From Clostridiales bacterium GWD2_32_19 (GTDB lineage Bacteria; Bacillota; Clostridia; Lachnospirales; UBA12420), in the NCBI GenBank assembly GCA_001795385.1, contig MGOU01000010.1, positions 203-64,202 of the forward strand: 64,000 nucleotides of DNA. Direction: 5' to 3'. The first letter of the stretch is position 1, and every line of letters begins with the position of its first letter. This document shows positions 3,110 through 52,981 of this stretch, in pieces. A model generated the notes under the pieces. That model did no database searches and was not told the DNA's origin. It was given only the letters and a program-made list of their open reading frames with translations. Both the position numbers and the translations under genes were made by a program.

Positions 3110-3553
3110 ATGGAGCATATTATATTCATGAATAAGAAAACGGATGATTTTCTAAAGAGGATAGTGACAGGAGAAAAGCCTATTGAGTCGAGGTGGTATA
3201 AGCACAAATACGCACCTTGGGATAGAATCAAGGCGGGCGAGACTGTATATTTTAAAAATTCAGGGGAAAAAGTAACTGTTCGGGCAGTAGTAAAAGAAAT
3301 AATGCAATTTGAAAATCTGGATGAAGAAAAGATAGAAAAAATATGGAATGCTTATGGGAAAGAGATAAACCCTATTACGAAAGACATGAAATCTACGATA
3401 GGGCTGGAAAAGGCGAAGCCATACAAATATTGTGTTTTAGTCTGGGTTAAAGATGTAAAAGAAATAGAGCCATTTGCGATAGACAAAACGGGATACGGGA
3501 ATATGGCGGCGTGGATAGTAGTTGATGATGTGAATAAAATTAGGGTGAAATAG
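3110..3553 (+). CDS. ASCH (PUA-like) domain protein
   Basis: IVTGEKPIESRW matches the ASCH GxKxxExR motif; the length is 147 aa. Confidence 0.65.
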   Translation: MEHIIFMNKKTDDFLKRIVTGEKPIESRWYKHKYAPWDRIKAGETVYFKNSGEKVTVRAVVKEIMQFENLDEEKIEKIWNAYGKEINPITKDMKSTIGLEKAKPYKYCVLVWVKDVKEIEPFAIDKTGYGNMAAWIVVDDVNKIRVK

Positions 3554-3749
3554 AATATAAACCTGTTTGTTCCATTGGAAATTCTAATCCAAAATATGCA
3601 TAGGAATAAAGTCTAATATGCGTTTTTTGCTAATATGATTTATATTCATGATGTAAAGAGAAGGGTTCAAAAGATAAAAAATCAAGTAATATTAAAAGGT
3701 AAGAATGAAGTATTAACAGATGATTAGTAAGCGGTAGAATAAAACACCT

Positions 3750-5309
3750 TCATAATTGGAGGTGTTCTTGTTGCATTTCTTTTTCTTGCATTATACAATG
3801 TATAAGAAGTGGATCTAGCCCTTGCAGTTCTGATTCTTGCTGTTTTTGGCTTTCAGGTTTATCTACTTGCCAATATGGAAGATTTCCTTGATAGTCAAAG
3901 GGTGTAAGAATATTAAGATCTGTTGAATGTGATACACTAATTTTTTCAACATTTGAGCCCATTATATTGTTTAAATTGTAAAAATCTTTATGTGCTTCAG
4001 GCATATCATTGTTTAAGTCTTCACATGTCTGAAATAAGCTAGTAAAATAATTACTTAAAGCGGAAGCAACCATAGAAGGATCTTTATCTTTATTTAAATA
4101 ATTTACTACAGCTCCTGCATTTATTAAAAAATTATTCGAACCTAAATTATTATTTCCTGTATTTGTTTCTTTATCAGGATTTGATAAGAAGATATCATTA
4201 ATGTCAAATTTATTTTCTGTGGCAATTGCGGTTAAAAAGTATAATGCATCACCTATTTCATTTCTTAATAATACTTTTGTAGCAAGCTCTCTACCGTATT
4301 TTTTGTAATATTCTTTTGAATCAGTTAGAGTAATAATTTTCAAAGAGCTTTTAATAAAACTGTGTTCTAAGAAGGTTGTTTTGTTGTCACAATTTATTTT
4401 TGTTCTTTCAACTTCTTTTTGATATTCACTAAAAGTGATGTCAGGATATTTTGATGCCATTGCACTAACGCATGCAGCTGATACATTAACATCTCTTGGT
4501 ACAATAAAATGAGAGGAAATTCTCGAAAAATATTCTCTTTTATCAAATTCATTAGGATATATTTCACGCGTAATGCGATAATTATCTTTTAATATATGTT
4601 CAAGTACCCCATTTTCTTGAATTATAGTTGGATCATAATCAACAATCAAACGACCAATAAAGGTCGTATATGCGATAATGTCTCCAATTTCTTGAATGGT
4701 AGCTAGCTTATCATTACTGCTTATACATTCAATTAATTCCGCTACTTCTGTAAAAAGCTGTTGGGAATGATATGAGGCATTGTTCTTTTTATCGAAATTA
4801 CAGATAAACTCTTCATATTCACGATATGTCTTTATTGGCGTATATGTTCCAGCTAATATATCTTTATATTTTTTACCCAAATTAGATTTTGGATCTGATT
4901 CTTCACTATGCTCTTGTTTTTTTGAAGCCTCATCATTTTTAAAACGTTCTTCTGTAAATGGACCTCTATAACCAAGCTTAATAAGATTGCAATTGGCAGC
5001 GTCTAGTAAAGATGAGCCATGTTCGCTTGCAATAGCTTCTGCAAAAAACATTATATTTCCAAGCGATAAAAAAACTTCAGTTTTTTCATCGCTTGTTAAC
5101 TCAGTAGCTGATTCATAAAAAAATTTTCTATCTTTTTCTTGTGCATTAATTAACATATATTTTTGAGCAATTTTACTCACTTCTGCAAACATACAAATAA
5201 GGAAGAAATTAAGATGTTCTTCTTTAGATATAGTTTTAGATTTTTTATAATCAACAAACATAGAATAGTCTTCAGGCGTGAATCCCATAGCTCTCACTTT
5301 CCTTTCCAT
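3750..5309 (-). CDS. protein with three tandem MazG-like (all-alpha NTP pyrophosphohydrolase-like) repeats
   Basis: Three internal repeats each open like a MazG domain (FTPEDYSMF, TYREYEEF, TFSEYQKEVERT). The second has ExxE (EVAELIE) plus ExxD (EIGDII), and the third has EIGDALYF. Confidence 0.55.
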   Translation of the reverse strand: MERKVRAMGFTPEDYSMFVDYKKSKTISKEEHLNFFLICMFAEVSKIAQKYMLINAQEKDRKFFYESATELTSDEKTEVFLSLGNIMFFAEAIASEHGSSLLDAANCNLIKLGYRGPFTEERFKNDEASKKQEHSEESDPKSNLGKKYKDILAGTYTPIKTYREYEEFICNFDKKNNASYHSQQLFTEVAELIECISSNDKLATIQEIGDIIAYTTFIGRLIVDYDPTIIQENGVLEHILKDNYRITREIYPNEFDKREYFSRISSHFIVPRDVNVSAACVSAMASKYPDITFSEYQKEVERTKINCDNKTTFLEHSFIKSSLKIITLTDSKEYYKKYGRELATKVLLRNEIGDALYFLTAIATENKFDINDIFLSNPDKETNTGNNNLGSNNFLINAGAVVNYLNKDKDPSMVASALSNYFTSLFQTCEDLNNDMPEAHKDFYNLNNIMGSNVEKISVSHSTDLNILTPFDYQGNLPYWQVDKPESQKQQESELQGLDPLLIHCIMQEKEMQQEHLQL

Positions 5310-5474
5310 ACATCTAGTAAAATTATATCATAAAATTCAAATTATGTCAATAAATGTAAAAATAGAAAACTTCATCTATAGAAAATGTAAATTAAAATAT
5401 ATTTAGAGGTTCTCAGTAAATGCTGAAAACCTTTTTTTGACTAATTATTATTTTTATCATAATATATTTTCCAA

Positions 5475-5519
5475 GTGATATCATATTTATATAATCTGCA
5501 TTATTTTTTGTGATATCAT
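5475..5519. promoter_or_regulatory. two identical palindromic boxes gtgatatcat bracketing a tataat hexamer
   Basis: gtgatatcat occurs at 5475-5484 and 5510-5519 (core tgatatca is an 8-bp palindrome), with tataat between them. Confidence 0.3.
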
Positions 5520-5773
5520 TGCACTGAATTGTTGTATTTATGTGGTTATTGTTATTTGTTTCTGTCCTTAATCTAAATCAAGGGGTAGATGCGAAGATAA
5601 AATTAGGTTTCAAAAGTAAATTGAGTTTTAAGCAGAAAGCAGTAATAATTGCGATGTTAAATAGAATAAAAAACATGTATATGAGTTATTTTACAAAATA
5701 ATGCAAGTATAAATATGGTAAATACATTTTCAATAACAGTTTAACTATTTCGTCGAAAAATGTCGTAAAATGA

Positions 5774-5802
5774 TTGACGAATGTCGAATATTGTGTTAAA
5801 AT
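5774..5802 (+). promoter_or_regulatory. sigma-A type promoter for the MCP operon
   Basis: TTGACG (5774-5779), 17-nt spacer, tgt-TAAAAT (extended -10, 5794-5802). Confidence 0.6.
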
Positions 5803-5887
5803 TAATCATATAAAATATAAACTACAGTTAAATGTTTTGATATGTAACTTAGAAAGGAGGTTGCATTTATATTAAAAGGGAGGTTAG

Positions 5888-6955
5888 ATGATGAACTATT
5901 TTATTGCAATTATTATCGTTTTTTTTGCAGTAATTATTACACGACAATTCTATAAAAGTAAAGCAAGTACATATAAGAAGTTAACCGAGCAAGCGGAGTT
6001 AAAAAACAAGGAGATACTCACGGGTATAAATGGTTGTCTTGAAAAGGTTATGAAGGACAATTCTGCAATCAGTGAAAAATTAATGCTAGATATTTTTGAT
6101 TTAATTTCTAATGTAGAAAGTATTAATAATAAGATAAGTAATATTCATGCTGAAAGTGGAAGCATTTCAAATTCTTTTGAAGTAATAGCATTAAGTTTTT
6201 CAGATTCATCTAATGCTAATCAGGTTACGGCAACAGATATTTGTGAAATATCTTCACGGTTAAAGGAAACAATTTCATTAGCTGAGAAGAACGAAGCACT
6301 AGCATCTGAAGCAAAACCACATTTGGCGCAAATAGAGGGAATATTATCCAATACGGAGGTTTTAACTGATAAGTTAAGTCAAAATGCCGTAGAAATAAGT
6401 AGCATTGTTGATACAATTAAAGGGATCACTGAGAAAACAAATCTTTTGGCTTTGAACGCAGCAATAGAAGCAGCACGTGCAGGTGAACAAGGGAGAGGCT
6501 TTGCTGTTGTTGCAGATGAGATAAGAAAGTTAGCAGATAGTAGTAATAAATCTGCAAAGAAAATTGAAGAGCTTATAAAAAACAATCAAGAATCAATAGT
6601 GAACACAGTTAATTATGTTTCTGAAATTAAACTTAATATTGAAAAAGAAGTCTTTTGTATTGATGAACGATTTGAACAAACTAGAAAAACGACTGAAAAG
6701 GTACTCAGTATAAATAACAAGATTGAAAATATTGCAGCGTATACGGAAGAGCAATCTGCTACATCTGAAGAGGTATACGCTACCACAGAACAAATAAATA
6801 ATAAGAGCCAATCTATTGTTAATTCGGTGAAACAAGTTAACGAAAATATTGAAGTACAACTTAAAATTATTCGAGCTCTTGATGATATTCCTATAAAGCT
6901 AAATGATTCATCCGAAGAAATATTCAAACTAATAAAACAAATAAAATCATCATAA
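5888..6955 (+). CDS. methyl-accepting chemotaxis protein, single N-terminal TM, no obvious sensor domain
   Basis: Highly conserved MCP signalling hairpin [34 protein letters not shown]. The only hydrophobic helix is at aa 4-20. Confidence 0.9.
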
Positions 6956-6974
6956 GAATGAGGGGGTAACTATT

Positions 6975-7250
6975 ATGTCTAAACAAAACTGTTGGGAATA
7001 TAAAAATTGTGGAAGGAATCCAGGGGGAGCAAAAGTAGCAGAAATGGGTGTTTGTCCAGCTGCCACTGATGCATCACTTAATAAATGCAATGATGGAGAT
7101 AACGGGGGCAGGATGTGCTGGGCAATAGCAGGAACATTTTGTGGTGGGAAAGTTCAAGGGAGCTTTGCAGAGAAACAATCTTCATGTTTAGGATGTGAAT
7201 TTTTTAAAAAAGTAAAAGAAGAAGAAGAGGGCAAATTTAAATTAAAATAA
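6975..7250 (+). CDS. small Cys-rich 'two-CW'-type protein (91 aa, 8 Cys)
   Basis: Motifs NCWEYKNCG, MCWAIAGTFCGG and CLGCEFF. It starts 20 nt after the MCP stop behind gaggggg, and a shared terminator follows. Confidence 0.7.
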   Translation: MSKQNCWEYKNCGRNPGGAKVAEMGVCPAATDASLNKCNDGDNGGRMCWAIAGTFCGGKVQGSFAEKQSSCLGCEFFKKVKEEEEGKFKLK

Positions 7251-7334
7251 AATGGCAGACTAGTGAAATATACTATTTACATAGGAAAATTATATATAAG
7301 AAAGGAATTATCAAGAGAATTAAATAACAATTTA

Positions 7335-7385
7335 AAACACCCTTTATTTAGTGTTTTTGAACATTAAATAAAGGGTGTTTTTTAT
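7335..7385 (+). terminator. rho-independent terminator
   Basis: aaacaccctttattta / taaataaagggtgttt stem followed by a T-run. Confidence 0.8.
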
Positions 7386-7446
7386 TTAGATTTATAAGCT
7401 TTTTAAAGTATTGTTTTGCGTGTTAGATTACATTGGATTTTAATTT

Positions 7447-7601
7447 CTTAGGGTCAATTCCCCGCAGCTCTGCTGCGTGCGTCCTGTCATTGCGAGGTAC
7501 GAAGCAATCTTGTACTTAAGCTAAAGGAGAGATTGCTTCGTAAAAAGATGCTCGCAATGACAAATAGATACCCCGCAGCTTTGCTGCGGGGAGAATTCAT
7601 T
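7447..7601. repeat. nested-palindrome repeat, family 1, copy A (divergent)
   Basis: Outer ccccgcagc...gctgcgggg, middle gtcattgcgag...ctcgcaatgac, inner gaagcaatct...agattgcttc. Confidence 0.85.
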
Positions 7602-7769: not shown

Positions 7770-9593
7770 ATGAAGAAAATAATTAGTTTGCTGTATGTAG
7801 TATCGTTTATGATAATGTTAATTAATCAAACATCTTTTGCGGATGGAATGGTATTCTCACCACCGACAGGCCCTGCTACGCAAATTGAGGTGATACCCGA
7901 GGAAGAGCAATATTGTTTCATTAACTATAACCAAGATTCACAAAGTATGTTTTTGAGCATTGATTTAAAGACAGAGAATGATAAAAAATCAGTTTGGATA
8001 TTTCCGGTACCAGCAGAGCCTAAAGATGTAATAATGAATGTAATAGATGCGCAGTTTTCCATATCGGGGACTGAAGTAAATGATGCTGCAAAGGATAAAA
8101 TAGAAAAGGTAAAGGATGGCATGTTAGCTACACAAATATACCCATTGCTATTTGAGGATGATGACAATAATTGGGGATACAAATCATATGACGGAATGTC
8201 TGCTATGGGCATCATGACGGATGATAGTAGTATAAACGAAACACAGGGAGTCACAGTATACGAGCAAATAGATAAGATGGGGACGAGGACAGAGTTAATT
8301 ACAGCTGTTGATGAAATGAGTATAAAAAAGTACTTAGAAAGTAATGGGGTATATATAAATGAAAAGATATTAAATAGCTTAAAACAATACATAGGACAAA
8401 AATCAACATTCGTGGTTTCTTGGATAACTGATGAAAATCAGTATAATGAGGAATTGCAAATAACTGATAGTGATTCGTTATATACTACACAAGGTAATAA
8501 AAAAGTGGGAGTAAATGTTGTTTTTCCAGCTAAAGAATTATATTTTCCATTGAAACTTACATCCATTTATGATAGTGTTATCGTTCCAGCGAACATTTAT
8601 GTTGTAGGACATGTTAGTCCAAAGCCATACAGTAAGTTAGAACAGTATCTGGAAACTGAGTATTACATTGATGGAAGTATAGATATAAATTCATCTGACG
8701 ATAAAATGAAAGATATTATGTTGTTAAAAAATGTAAATTTAAGCGGTATGGACTATACAAAAATAACAATTAATTCACCTTCGAAAATTTTATCAGAAGA
8801 TTTAATGATAAATAAAGAATCTCCAATTAAAGTTAGTTTTCTTAAATTTATTGCGGTGAATTCATTATTGTTTGGAATATTGTCAGTAATTATTATTTCG
8901 ATTTTATTATCAATCATTTTAGGAAAAGTATTATACAAACAAAATATATCTTTTAAAAGACTTATTATAATAGGGGCAAGCAACATTTTTTCAATAATAG
9001 GGGTAGCTGCTAGTAGTTTTTTAATTTTAAAAGAAGAAGTAAGCAATGAAAGTAAAATGGTAAAGGATAAAGTAAAAGAATTTAGCATAAGTGCAGAAAA
9101 AATATCGATTTGTGGTATTATGGGATTGGTTATTTTTATAATTGCAGTAATATTATCAAGCCAGTCATATTATAGAACAGAAGAATTTGTTGGAATTCCT
9201 CTGGTAGTATTATATTTTATTTCATTAATATTCTTAAGTATAGAAAAGCAGACTATAGAGGTAGGAGATGCGACTAATAAATATATTATATTTGATGTAA
9301 AGAAGATGATTTATGGATTCTTAGTATATATATGTAGCATTATATTTTGTATAGTTGTTTTACAAATTCGTAGTAGTAGCGGAGGAGTAATTATAAGTAC
9401 ATTAATAGCTTTTGCTGTTGTTTTAGTTACTATGGTATTTGTTAATAAATTGCTCAATAAGTTTACGAAGATTGGAATTATTATATTAAATAAAACAAGT
9501 TATTTGAAATTAATATTTCCTGTATTATTTAGTATAGGATTTGTAATAAGTGTTCTTGTATTTTTAGGTTTGATAAATCTACTAATTAAATAG
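7770..9593 (+). CDS. secreted/membrane protein: signal peptide, ~340-aa extracytoplasmic domain, ~7 C-terminal TM helices
   Basis: N-terminal MKKIISLLYVVSFMIMLINQTSFA is followed by a hydrophilic domain and then repeated hydrophobic stretches. The family was not recognised with confidence. Confidence 0.7.
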   Translation: MKKIISLLYVVSFMIMLINQTSFADGMVFSPPTGPATQIEVIPEEEQYCFINYNQDSQSMFLSIDLKTENDKKSVWIFPVPAEPKDVIMNVIDAQFSISGTEVNDAAKDKIEKVKDGMLATQIYPLLFEDDDNNWGYKSYDGMSAMGIMTDDSSINETQGVTVYEQIDKMGTRTELITAVDEMSIKKYLESNGVYINEKILNSLKQYIGQKSTFVVSWITDENQYNEELQITDSDSLYTTQGNKKVGVNVVFPAKELYFPLKLTSIYDSVIVPANIYVVGHVSPKPYSKLEQYLETEYYIDGSIDINSSDDKMKDIMLLKNVNLSGMDYTKITINSPSKILSEDLMINKESPIKVSFLKFIAVNSLLFGILSVIIISILLSIILGKVLYKQNISFKRLIIIGASNIFSIIGVAASSFLILKEEVSNESKMVKDKVKEFSISAEKISICGIMGLVIFIIAVILSSQSYYRTEEFVGIPLVVLYFISLIFLSIEKQTIEVGDATNKYIIFDVKKMIYGFLVYICSIIFCIVVLQIRSSSGGVIISTLIAFAVVLVTMVFVNKLLNKFTKIGIIILNKTSYLKLIFPVLFSIGFVISVLVFLGLINLLIK

Positions 9594-24878: not shown

Positions 24879-27524
24879 ATGAAAAAAGAGTTAGAAACAA
24901 AATATAATCCACAGGAGATGGAAGATAGAATTTATAAAAAATGGCAGGATGAAAAGTATTTTGAGGCAGTGGTTGACAAGAGCAAAAAACCCTACAGTAT
25001 AGTAATGCCACCACCAAATGTAACGGGGGTTTTACATATAGGGCACGCGCTTAACAATTCTTTACAAGACATACTTATAAGATGGAAAAGAATGCAGGGA
25101 TACTCTGTGCTTTGGGTACCTGGGACCGATCATGCTAGTATATCAACAGAGGTAAAAGTTGTTGATAAACTTTTAAAGGAAGGTATAAAGAAAACTGATA
25201 TAACAAGGGAAGAATTTTTAAAAGAAGCATGGGATTGGACTCATAAGTATGGGGGAACTATAGTTAGTCAATTAAGAAAGCTAGGGGTATCATGTGACTG
25301 GTCTCGTGAGAGATTTACAATGGACGAAATGTGTAGTAAAGCAGTACTTGAATCATTCGTTAAGCTTTATGAAAAAGGGTATATATATAGAGGTGAGAGG
25401 ATAACAAATTGGTGTCCACACTGTAAGACAACTATATCTGATGCAGAGGTAGAATATGAAGAGGTTGGGGGCAAATTTTATCATATAAAATATATGATAG
25501 AAGGAACTGATGAATTTCTACAAGTGGCTACAACAAGACCTGAGACAATGTTTGGAGATACTGCTGTAGCGGTAAATCCAAATGACACAAGATACAAAAA
25601 GTATGTTGGTAAAAATGTAATATTACCTATTACAAATAAAAAGATACCAGTAGTTGCTGACGAGCACGCAGATATGGAGTTTGGAACAGGTGTTGTCAAA
25701 ATAACTCCAGGGCATGATCTTAATGATTTTGAAGTAGGTAAAAGAAAAAAATTACCTATAGTTATATGTATAAATGACGATGGTACAATGAATAAAAACG
25801 CTATGCAATATGAGGGTATGGATAGATATGAATGTAGAAAACAAGTTGTAAAGGACCTTGAAACACAAGGACTGTTAGTTAAAGCAGAGGAGCACATTCA
25901 CAATGTAGGAACTCATGATAGATGTAAAATTGTTATTGAACCAATAGTTAAAATGCAATGGTTTGTAGCTATGGAAGAACTTGTAAAACCAGCAATAAGA
26001 GTAGTAAAAACAGATGAAGTACATTTCGTAACAGAAAGGTATGAAAAAATATATATGCACTGGCTAGAAAATATAAGAGACTGGTGTATATCAAGACAAC
26101 TTTGGTGGGGACACAGGATACCTGCTTACTATTGTGATGATTGTGGAGAGATTACTGTATCTATGACTACGCCAAGCAAGTGTAACAAATGTAGTAGTAG
26201 CAATTTAAAACAAGATGAAGATGTTCTTGATACATGGTTCAGCTCTGCATTATGGCCCTTCTCAACTATGGGATGGCCAGATAAAACAGAAGATTTGGAA
26301 TTTTTTTATCCTACAGATGTTTTGATAACAGGTCCTGATATAATATTCTTTTGGGTAGCTCGTATGGTGTTTTCAGGACTTGAATATATGGATAAAATAC
26401 CTTTTAAAGATGTGCTTATAAATGGTATTGTTCGTGACTCAGAAGGTAGAAAAATGAGTAAGTCACTAGGTAATGGTATTGATCCGATAGATGTTGTAGA
26501 AAAATATGGTGCTGATGCTATGAGGTTTATGCTTGTTAGCAATAACACACCAGGAAATGACATGAGATTCTATTGGGATAAGGTTGAAGCAAGTCGTAAT
26601 TTTGCAAACAAGATATGGAACGCGACAAGATTCATAATGATAAACATGGATGAAGAGATGTCAGATATAAATACAGAAAACCTCACCATATCGGATAAAT
26701 GGATATTATCTAGAGTAAATACACTTGCAAAAGAAGTAACAGAGAATATGGAAAAATATGATTTAGGAGTTGGAGCACAGAAAATACAAGACTTCTTGTG
26801 GAGCGAGTACTGCGACTGGTATGTAGAAATGGTAAAGCCAAGATTATATAATAAAGAGGATGAAACCCGACATGCAGCACTCTGGACACTAAAGACTGTA
26901 CTAATAAATGCATTGAAACTGCTACATCCATATATGCCTTTTATCACAGAAGAAATATTTACTACGCTTCAAGATACTGAGGAGACAATAGTACATGCTA
27001 AATGGCCGGAATACAATTTTAAATGGAATTTTGCGAGTGAAGAAGAACAAACAGAAATCATAAAAGATATAGTAAAAGGTATTAGAAATGCAAGACTAGA
27101 AAAGAATATAGTACCATCAAGAAAAATAAGGGCAGTGATAGTGACAGAGGATAGAACTCTTATGGATACAATAGAAAAACAAAAAGATATATTTAATATA
27201 CTTGTTAATACAAATGAGATAAGTGTTTTAACACAAAAAAATACAGATACAGACAATGCTATATCTATAATAGTAAAAAATGCAATCGTTTATTTACCAC
27301 TTAAAGGGCTTATAGATTTTGATCAGGAGATAGAAAGATTAGGTAAGGAAAAAGAAAGACTAGAAAAAGAAATAGAAAGAATAGATGTTAAATTAGCAAA
27401 CGAAGGTTTTGTAGCAAAAGCTCCAGCTAAAGTAATAGAGGAAGAAAAGGAAAAAAGGAATGGATACAAAAATATGTTAGGAAAAGTTTCGGAAGAGATA
27501 AAAAGTTTAGAAGTTAACAAATAG
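24879..27524 (+). CDS. valS: valine--tRNA ligase
   Basis: HIGHALN and KMSKS motifs, a C-terminal coiled coil, 881 aa. Confidence 0.97.
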   Translation: MKKELETKYNPQEMEDRIYKKWQDEKYFEAVVDKSKKPYSIVMPPPNVTGVLHIGHALNNSLQDILIRWKRMQGYSVLWVPGTDHASISTEVKVVDKLLKEGIKKTDITREEFLKEAWDWTHKYGGTIVSQLRKLGVSCDWSRERFTMDEMCSKAVLESFVKLYEKGYIYRGERITNWCPHCKTTISDAEVEYEEVGGKFYHIKYMIEGTDEFLQVATTRPETMFGDTAVAVNPNDTRYKKYVGKNVILPITNKKIPVVADEHADMEFGTGVVKITPGHDLNDFEVGKRKKLPIVICINDDGTMNKNAMQYEGMDRYECRKQVVKDLETQGLLVKAEEHIHNVGTHDRCKIVIEPIVKMQWFVAMEELVKPAIRVVKTDEVHFVTERYEKIYMHWLENIRDWCISRQLWWGHRIPAYYCDDCGEITVSMTTPSKCNKCSSSNLKQDEDVLDTWFSSALWPFSTMGWPDKTEDLEFFYPTDVLITGPDIIFFWVARMVFSGLEYMDKIPFKDVLINGIVRDSEGRKMSKSLGNGIDPIDVVEKYGADAMRFMLVSNNTPGNDMRFYWDKVEASRNFANKIWNATRFIMINMDEEMSDINTENLTISDKWILSRVNTLAKEVTENMEKYDLGVGAQKIQDFLWSEYCDWYVEMVKPRLYNKEDETRHAALWTLKTVLINALKLLHPYMPFITEEIFTTLQDTEETIVHAKWPEYNFKWNFASEEEQTEIIKDIVKGIRNARLEKNIVPSRKIRAVIVTEDRTLMDTIEKQKDIFNILVNTNEISVLTQKNTDTDNAISIIVKNAIVYLPLKGLIDFDQEIERLGKEKERLEKEIERIDVKLANEGFVAKAPAKVIEEEKEKRNGYKNMLGKVSEEIKSLEVNK

Positions 27525-52850: not shown

Positions 52851-52888
52851 CTCCGATTTGTCATTGCGAGGAACGAAGCAATCTCGTA
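52851..52888. repeat. family 1 repeat, half-copy E
   Basis: cctccgatttgtcattgcgaggaacgaagcaatctcg; only the left half is present. Confidence 0.7.
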
Positions 52889-52981
52889 TTTTCAAGCATA
52901 AAAATAAAAACGTGCTGGTTAAATTCATTTTTTATTATGTTTTTTGTAAGTTATAATATTGAAAAAAATGCATTTTTTTAC

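Follow-up and report, generated by a model that had tools for sequence, protein, structure and literature searches.

The 64,000-nucleotide (nt) stretch of contig MGOU01000010.1 analysed here, referred to as the window, derives from Clostridiales bacterium GWD2_32_19 and carries two same-strand open reading frames (ORFs), one for a methyl-accepting chemotaxis protein (MCP) of 355 amino acids (aa) and the next for a cysteine-rich protein of 91 aa that belongs to the two-CW family. The two proteins may together form a chemoreceptor in which signalling and sensing are divided between separate chains, and the comparative evidence for such a division is the main subject of this work. The coordinates of both genes and of the features around them are collected in Table 1. 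On sister contigs the MCP start is called either at ATG 5888 or at ATG 5891, giving a protein of 355 or 354 aa, respectively. Two Shine-Dalgarno (SD)-like sequences are present in the leader of this gene, and the first of them is followed by a mini-ORF of four codons (TTG CAT TTA TAT TAA, 5861-5875).

The MCP frame closes with a TAA codon at 6953-6955 and the ATG of the small gene is found at 6975, leaving a gap of 19 nt. An earlier annotation of this DNA, produced by a model from the letters and a list of ORFs and called the sequence-only reading below, had put the distance at twenty nt; its statement that the small gene lies behind an SD sequence agrees with the GAGGGGG motif and its 8-nt spacing. 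The same annotation described the two genes as translationally coupled. Since the second gene has an SD sequence of its own and a 19-nt spacer, strict translational coupling was dropped, and co-transcription is the reading that the junction supports. The MCP and two-CW genes are probably co-transcribed, judging by the gap and by the promoter-like and terminator-like sites that bracket the pair, and the terminator scan called no site between the MCP gene and its small neighbour. The single promoter and single terminator that had been assigned to the pair can be recognised in these sites, although both are consensus matches only and do not prove an operon. The promoter scan returned 18 promoter-like sites against 14.4 expected in shuffled sequences, which is no evidence of function, while the terminator scan returned 4 sites in the window, where shuffled sequences would give 0.6. 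On matching contigs from an uncultured Clostridiales bacterium (GCA_003518385.1 and others), the same gene pair lies alone between unrelated genes.

Table 1. Features of the MCP/two-CW gene pair, with positions counted from the first letter of the window.
Feature	Position	Strand	Basis and details
Promoter-like site	5774..5802	+	TTGACG, 17-nt spacer, TAAAAT, extended TG before the -10; 10/12 consensus matches
MCP leader	5853..5883	+	SD-like AAAGGAGG at 5853-5860, GGGAGG at 5878-5883, mini-ORF between; read from sequence
MCP gene, 355 aa, membrane-anchored, without recognisable sensor domain	5888..6955	+	Pfam MCPsignal
Single N-terminal transmembrane helix, residues ~3-19, then basic stretch	5894..5944	+	Kyte-Doolittle
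MCP signalling domain, residues 141-305, with hairpin-tip motif	6308..6802	+	Pfam PF00015
Shine-Dalgarno sequence GAGGGGG of the two-CW gene	6960..6966	+	8 nt before ATG, 4 nt past MCP stop
Free-standing two-CW domain protein, 91 aa	6975..7250	+	NCBIfam NF045718; 7 invariant Cys, 2 invariant Trp
Intrinsic-terminator-like hairpin, 20-pair stem (7334-7381) plus T run	7334..7390	+	Terminator scan

The sole Pfam match in the 355-aa protein was MCPsignal, which scored 132.6 bits against a cutoff of 34.6, and neither HAMP, PAS, Cache nor any other input domain matched at E<=1. Kyte-Doolittle windows of 19 residues exceeded 1.6 at the N-terminus only. The description of this protein as an MCP with one N-terminal transmembrane helix and without an input domain is thereby upheld. 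Because of the positive-inside rule, its signalling part is expected to lie in the cytoplasm, and a chain with MCPsignal alone and one N-terminal helix would thus consist of a membrane anchor and about 330 residues of cytoplasmic hairpin. Counted from the tip motif AGEQGRGF, the C-terminal arm holds about 22 heptads, a number consistent with the long 44H-type class, as far as simple counting goes and short of a formal classification. A protein annotated from Clostridiales metagenome-assembled genomes (P0386) is identical to the window MCP.

In regard to the 91-aa protein, the motifs NCWEYKNCG, MCWAIAGTFCGG and CLGCEFF are read directly in its sequence, just as the sequence-only reading had listed them. 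The protein matches the NCBIfam model NF045718 (two_CW_domain) end to end, with residues 4-83 aligned to positions 1-80 of the 80-position model at 106.2 bits against a cutoff of 35, so that the name two-CW, given in the sequence-only reading, proved to be the right one. The NCBIfam entry only names the domain, of which the window protein is an ordinary full-length member, and no Pfam family matched the protein at E<=1. Literature searches by family name, accession and motifs returned no paper giving a cofactor, structure, partner or function for two-CW, in agreement with the earlier remark that it has no established function.

In alignments of 31 and 150 sequences, residues C6, W7, C12, G13, R14, C27, R46, C48, W49, C71 and C74 are invariant throughout the family, and C56 is invariant or nearly so. 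The eighth cysteine of the window protein, C38, is lineage-specific and not conserved; the family signature therefore comprises seven cysteines and not the eight counted before, while the two conserved tryptophans (W7 and W49) stand as claimed. Among the seven cysteines, C-P and CxxC motifs can be recognised, and no histidine or aspartate is invariant. Searches in Pfam, among PDB sequences and with Foldseek against PDB revealed no ferredoxin-type CxxCxxCxxxCP motif, Fer4-type profile or corresponding fold. When an alignment of 150 diverse sequences was supplied, AlphaFold2 modelled the protein with a predicted local distance difference test score (pLDDT) of 84 and a predicted template-modelling score (pTM) of 0.72, as six short helices without strands. 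The 31-sequence alignment gave a pLDDT of 54 and an unusable model, so the prediction is confident only with a deep alignment. Some family members (P0121, P0122 and P0123; 187-265 aa) are built of two tandem two-CW domains, an arrangement suggesting that two-CW may act in pairs or as a dimer.

The family has many members, is spread widely and shows remarkable conservation. More than 588 homologues share 60-81% identity with the window protein and come from Clostridia, Nitrospirota, Desulfobacterota, Zixibacteria, Omnitrophota and others. At least 558 two-CW stretches were confirmed in species-representative genomes of many bacterial phyla and of archaea; among the matches listed, the archaea are Methanoregulaceae, Hydrothermarchaeota, Thaumarchaeota and Hermodarchaeota, and the lineages lean towards anaerobic ones. 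Clustering at 50% identity (E<=1e-3) left 1,789 family representatives.

The link to chemoreceptors is most evident among the close relatives of the small protein. A set of ten loci, made up of the window and of nine such relatives, contained an adjacent MCP gene in eight cases (the window and seven of the nine relatives), in four arrangements that include both gene orders. The MCP gene comes first in the window, in L165 (P0002; gap of 12 nt, MCP of 380 aa that is 52% identical to the window MCP) and in L166 (P0047; 8 nt, 398 aa). The two-CW gene comes first in L160 of Clostridium cellulovorans (P0073; 86 nt, 417 aa), L162 (P0003; 242 nt, 419 aa), L167 (P0033; 128 nt, at least 273 aa, with the contig ending inside the gene), L163 (P0010; 88 nt, 348 aa) and L169 (P0072; 203 nt, 490 aa). 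No adjacent MCP was found in L168 (P0087), and at one locus of the ten the contig ends 398 nt upstream of the two-CW gene, with the downstream MCP present. MCPs account for about 1% of genes, and adjacency at eight of ten loci is therefore very unlikely to be due to chance.

The partner MCPs also resemble each other. Six of the eight are homologous from end to end at 35-49% identity, have one or two transmembrane helices, contain MCPsignal only and lack a periplasmic domain; across the whole cytoplasmic part, the window MCP shares 35-52% identity with the other two-CW-adjacent MCPs. The hairpin-tip block is invariant in the alignment of partner MCPs. The MCPs of L163, which has two transmembrane helices, and of L169 also contain only MCPsignal by Pfam and are not close homologues of the other six. 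As a negative control, the nearest homologue of the window MCP that does bear a sensor and HAMP (P0390) has no two-CW neighbour. The search with the window MCP scored 8,000 word-sharing candidates and missed known partner MCPs, and is thus no census of such proteins. In L169, the 490-aa MCP (1280-2752) itself contains a short degenerate cysteine-rich stretch at residues 131-197 that is weakly two-CW-like (hmmsearch E 1e-4 in a four-sequence search), and a full stand-alone two-CW gene is located upstream of it.

Furthermore, the two modules are found joined in one chain and side by side in chemotaxis operons. The MCP fusions P0232 (NIT–MCPsignal–two-CW, domain at residues 635-721) and P0235 (HAMP–MCPsignal–two-CW, residues 629-710) both hold the two-CW domain C-terminal to the MCP part, which corresponds to the gene order of the window. 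A search with the C-terminus of P0235 recovered mostly stand-alone proteins and gives no count of such fusions. In the che operon of L085 (MCP–CheW–two-CW–CheA–CheC–CheD–CheY, 3389-6378) a stand-alone two-CW gene is inserted between cheW and cheA, and L105 (797-3170) has the same start, with the order MCP–165-aa gene–two-CW and neighbours named without a Pfam check. In L085 the periplasmic part of the operon MCP (902 aa) contains a cytochrome-c-like motif. Independently of these operons, two-CW occurs in another che context at six Nitrospiraceae-type loci (L020, L035, L038, L047, L080 and L088), where its gene directly follows cheB as the last gene of a cluster ordered CheA–MCP–CheW/CheZ–CheW–CheB–two-CW.

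A wider survey of 156 loci with 173 two-CW family genes places this link within the family as a whole. Neighbour domains were found in it by single-seed phmmer, and neighbour counts are therefore lower bounds. Stand-alone genes made up 142 of the 173, so that the free-standing partner singled out by the sequence-only reading is indeed a gene of its own, but nothing special in that respect. The remaining 31 were fusions with architectures confirmed by Pfam; 14 of them were of the type two-CW–cyclic-nucleotide (cNMP)-binding–Ser/Thr kinase, 9 were two-CW–PP2C proteins and 4 were histidine kinases, and the rest included STAS fusions. In the 50 longest proteins among the top 150 family representatives, two-CW was joined to HATPase/HisKA (13), cNMP-binding–Ser/Thr kinase (8), receiver (6), PP2C (3), PilZ (3), MCPsignal (2), GGDEF (2) and STAS (2). 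The domain is N-terminal in the kinases and PP2C proteins and C-terminal in the MCP, HWE-type kinase, GGDEF and receiver fusions. Fusion to signalling proteins, as stated in the sequence-only reading, is thus confirmed, but its general N-terminal placing does not hold. The profile search and the survey of fusions and neighbourhoods, proposed earlier as a check, showed that two-CW both co-occurs with and is fused to MCPs and kinases.

Neighbouring genes for a Ser/Thr kinase and a PP2C phosphatase often both carry the two-CW domain, and antagonistic enzymes sharing one putative sensor would be a notable design. A gene for two-CW–cNMP-binding–Ser/Thr kinase is directly followed by one for two-CW–PP2C in L011 (5803-8617), L021 (2559-5229), L032, L033 and L072; a hemerythrin gene often lies just upstream of such a pair, and proteins such as P0124 and P0257 combine the two enzymes in one chain. 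Stand-alone two-CW genes had signalling neighbours in 41 of 244 genes at ±1, compared to 23 of 272 at a distance of at least four genes, a modest enrichment (odds ratio 2.2, p=0.005) that represents a lower bound because detection was insensitive. Such a distribution looks as would be expected for a mobile regulatory or sensory module, and the MCP pairing appears to be one of several uses of it, concentrated in particular lineages.

Taking these data together, we consider it moderately probable that the window gene pair encodes a bipartite chemoreceptor that senses in the cytoplasm, with the MCP as a transducer and the two-CW protein as a sensor acting in trans. The transducer would be a membrane-anchored signalling hairpin only, composed of one transmembrane helix and a coiled-coil bundle of about 330 residues, while the sensor, made from the same transcript, would bear a cofactor, the seven invariant cysteines holding one or two metal centres. 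Our preferred guess is one or more oxygen- or redox-sensitive iron-sulfur clusters, with a Zn-thiolate switch as the alternative. The guess is based on the C-P and CxxC motifs, on the aromatic residues beside cysteines, on the lack of conserved histidine or aspartate, on the predominance of anaerobic lineages and on the fact that the fold is predicted with confidence from a deep alignment only. The extreme degree to which the protein is conserved in bacterial phyla and archaea, and its compact model made of helices only, are likewise compatible with a metal centre. A pair of the 91-aa proteins could bind the four-helix bundle of the MCP dimer at its membrane-proximal end, because it is there, at the end of the C-terminal helix, that the MCP–two-CW fusions tether the domain. 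If the metal centre then switched state, helix packing at this site would change and the control of the CheA kinase at the distal tip would be altered, with a redox, oxygen or metal taxis response as the outcome. We infer that the two proteins bind each other, as well as where they dock, which cofactor is used and what is sensed.

Two details that could have refined this scheme were discarded. The conserved MCP C-terminal sequence LNxSSEELF was considered as a docking motif and dropped, as the unrelated MCP fusion P0235 ends similarly; the sequence is perhaps nothing more than the bundle's own C-terminal helix. Likewise, a cysteine at MCP residue 50, a candidate for an eighth cluster ligand, is missing in the partner MCPs of L160 and L162.

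The closest known system in function would be CetA/CetB of Campylobacter jejuni, together with CetA2/CetB2 of Magnetospirillum gryphiswaldense, experimentally studied two-protein chemoreceptors in which a sensor-less transducer is combined with a separate PAS protein carrying flavin adenine dinucleotide (FAD) (PMC2628428, PMC12442639). As in CetA/CetB, a membrane-anchored transducer with an MCP signalling domain and no sensor is accompanied by a small, separate candidate sensor protein encoded beside it. Sensor and transducer of CetA/CetB are co-transcribed; in the window, the consensus sites and the gap suggest that the two genes may be so as well. Single-chain relatives exist on both sides, namely Aer for CetA/CetB and the MCP–two-CW fusions for the window pair, although the sensor is N-terminal in the former and C-terminal in the latter. 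Unlike the PAS–FAD module of CetB, the putative sensor of the window is a cysteine-rich two-CW protein with no PAS match, and unlike CetA, which has a transmembrane hairpin and HAMP, the transducer has one transmembrane helix and no HAMP match at E<=1. With neither HAMP nor PAS, the window pair is therefore analogous to CetA/CetB and not a member of that family. In Aer, HemAT and DcrH, an MCP module is driven by a cofactor-bearing cytoplasmic domain (PAS-FAD, globin and hemerythrin, respectively) that reports oxygen or redox state (PMC2886117). Such cytoplasmic-sensing chemoreceptors are single polypeptides with well-known folds, whereas the window pair would have a separate sensor of an uncharacterised fold.

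Several observations weigh against a two-part receptor, or against its presumed metal centre. Immediate MCP adjacency is rare when the whole family is surveyed (2 of 173 genes), MCP or CheB genes occur within ±3 genes of 13 of the 173, and for about three quarters of the stand-alone genes no signalling neighbour was detected at ±1. Receiver–two-CW proteins exist, and the domain could accordingly serve as an output or effector instead of an input. There are no che genes within the 64-kb window, so that a working chemotaxis pathway of the organism has to be assumed. With respect to the cofactor, Foldseek found no solved structure resembling the model (best PDB hit at E 6.6, template-modelling score 0.23), a PDB sequence-profile search gave no match at E<=10, Pfam assigned the protein to no known metal-binding family, and with seven rather than eight cysteines no textbook cluster motif fits. 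Finally, where two-CW genes stand beside cheW, cheA or cheB, the target could be the array or the adaptation enzymes and not an MCP. The split receptor proposed in the sequence-only reading therefore gains from the conserved MCP pairing, the MCP fusions and the che operons, but loses from the rarity of MCP adjacency across the family. On balance, comparative genomics has substantially strengthened the split-chemoreceptor reading, which is still one that we infer.

A broader account, which we put forward tentatively, is that two-CW is an uncharacterised fold sensing by means of a metal cluster and serves as a general cytoplasmic input module of anaerobic bacteria and archaea. The seven cysteines might in that case hold one four-cysteine site and one three-cysteine site with an open position for a gas or another small ligand. 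The module would act in cis or in trans on outputs as diverse as MCP/Che systems, histidine kinases, Ser/Thr kinase–PP2C pairs, GGDEF, HD-GYP and PilZ, and the window pair would be its simplest natural trans example, a minimal redox or gas chemoreceptor without HAMP or PAS.

In the main rival reading, which the che-operon contexts suggest and which we regard as doubtful, the two-CW protein would modulate the chemosensory array or adaptation and not serve as the input sensor of an MCP. By binding CheA, CheW, CheB or the adaptation region of the receptor it could tune gain, clustering or methylation, in the manner of CheD, CheV or PilZ-type add-ons. Such a role would suit a stand-alone gene placed between cheW and cheA (L085; in L105 it follows an uncharacterised 165-aa gene) or after cheB, as at the six loci mentioned above. 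It would also suit the occurrence of two-CW beside MCPs that do bear sensors (CHASE8–HAMP in L054 and the cytochrome-c-like periplasmic part in L085), the N-terminal input parts (NIT and HAMP) that both MCP fusions already possess, and the receiver–two-CW proteins. However, in the lineage of the window the partner is consistently a sensor-less MCP, and the pair stands alone, away from che genes. Moreover, fusions with kinases, phosphatases and cyclases unrelated to chemotaxis arrays belong to the family just as much, and a general input module therefore fits better than an accessory specific to Che proteins.

A serious alternative, if an unlikely one, is that the bipartite receptor is real but that its cysteines form one or more Zn-thiolate sites and work as a thiol-oxidation or zinc switch. 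The model for such a switch is the CZB domain of TlpD and DgcZ, a cytoplasmic metal-thiolate module that senses oxidants or redox state and is found at MCP C-termini, in diguanylate cyclases and as a stand-alone protein (PMC6715182, PMC8262984). The two-CW domain shares this distribution, with MCP C-terminal, GGDEF-fused and stand-alone forms, and a CxxC motif and paired cysteines at helix ends are also typical of zinc knuckles; the lack of invariant histidine or aspartate points the same way. Yet two-CW resembles neither CZB nor any Pfam zinc domain in sequence or profile, with no Pfam match at E<=1, and CZB is a four-helix bundle with a zinc site of three histidines and one cysteine, unlike two-CW with its seven invariant cysteines, no invariant histidine and a predicted fold unmatched in the PDB. 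An iron-sulfur centre would agree somewhat better with the C-P motif, the aromatic residues beside the cysteines and the anaerobic bias, although none of these arguments is decisive.

Least of all do we favour an adjacency devoid of functional meaning, in which an independent small metalloprotein (an electron carrier or metal buffer) would merely share a transcript with an array-filling or indirectly activated MCP, for although most stand-alone family members lack a detected signalling neighbour and the genes beside them are of mixed kinds (sulfur transporter, T2SS-F, chorismate synthase), this is very improbable in view of the adjacent MCP at eight of ten loci in four arrangements and both orders, the covalent fusions to MCPs and many other signalling outputs, and the two-CW genes embedded in che operons.

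The surroundings of the pair hold further elements. On the upstream side lies a divergently transcribed gene (3750-5309, -) for a 519-aa protein with only a weak MazG-like stretch, and on the downstream side a gene (7770-9593, +) for a 607-aa protein with several transmembrane segments, whose match to DUF2330 is marginal at 23 bits and falls below the cutoff; little is characterised about either protein. Between the terminator-like hairpin of the two-CW gene and the latter gene, a near-perfect palindromic element of about 135 nt is located at 7459-7592, with a G+C content above that of its surroundings. Folded as RNA it reaches -74.8 kcal/mol (z = -8.1) and matches no Rfam family, and its core of about 40 nt recurs once in the window as a partial second copy (52859-52902). 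The element may be a repeat similar to miniature inverted-repeat transposable elements or to repetitive extragenic palindromic sequences. The sole Rfam match in the window is a T-box leader (RF00230; 24435-24686, +), which reaches 112 bits where the gathering score is 93. It precedes an ORF of 881 aa (24879-27524) that presumably encodes an aminoacyl-tRNA synthetase, and the 64 kb hold no tRNA genes.

Regarding the meaning of these results, CetA/CetB has already established that a chemoreceptor can be split, and what would be new in the window pair is the sensor module and its mechanism and not the architecture. The pairing of NF045718 proteins with sensor-less MCPs and their presence in che operons are findings of this analysis. 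Being small and separable, the window pair and the corresponding genes of Clostridium cellulovorans, a cultured species, represent a good test case. The family itself matters, being large, present in several hundred species-level genomes and conserved at 60-80% identity across phyla. If two-CW is a sensor, it would constitute a new type of input in prokaryotic signal transduction and would explain where chemoreceptors without a sensor domain obtain their signal.

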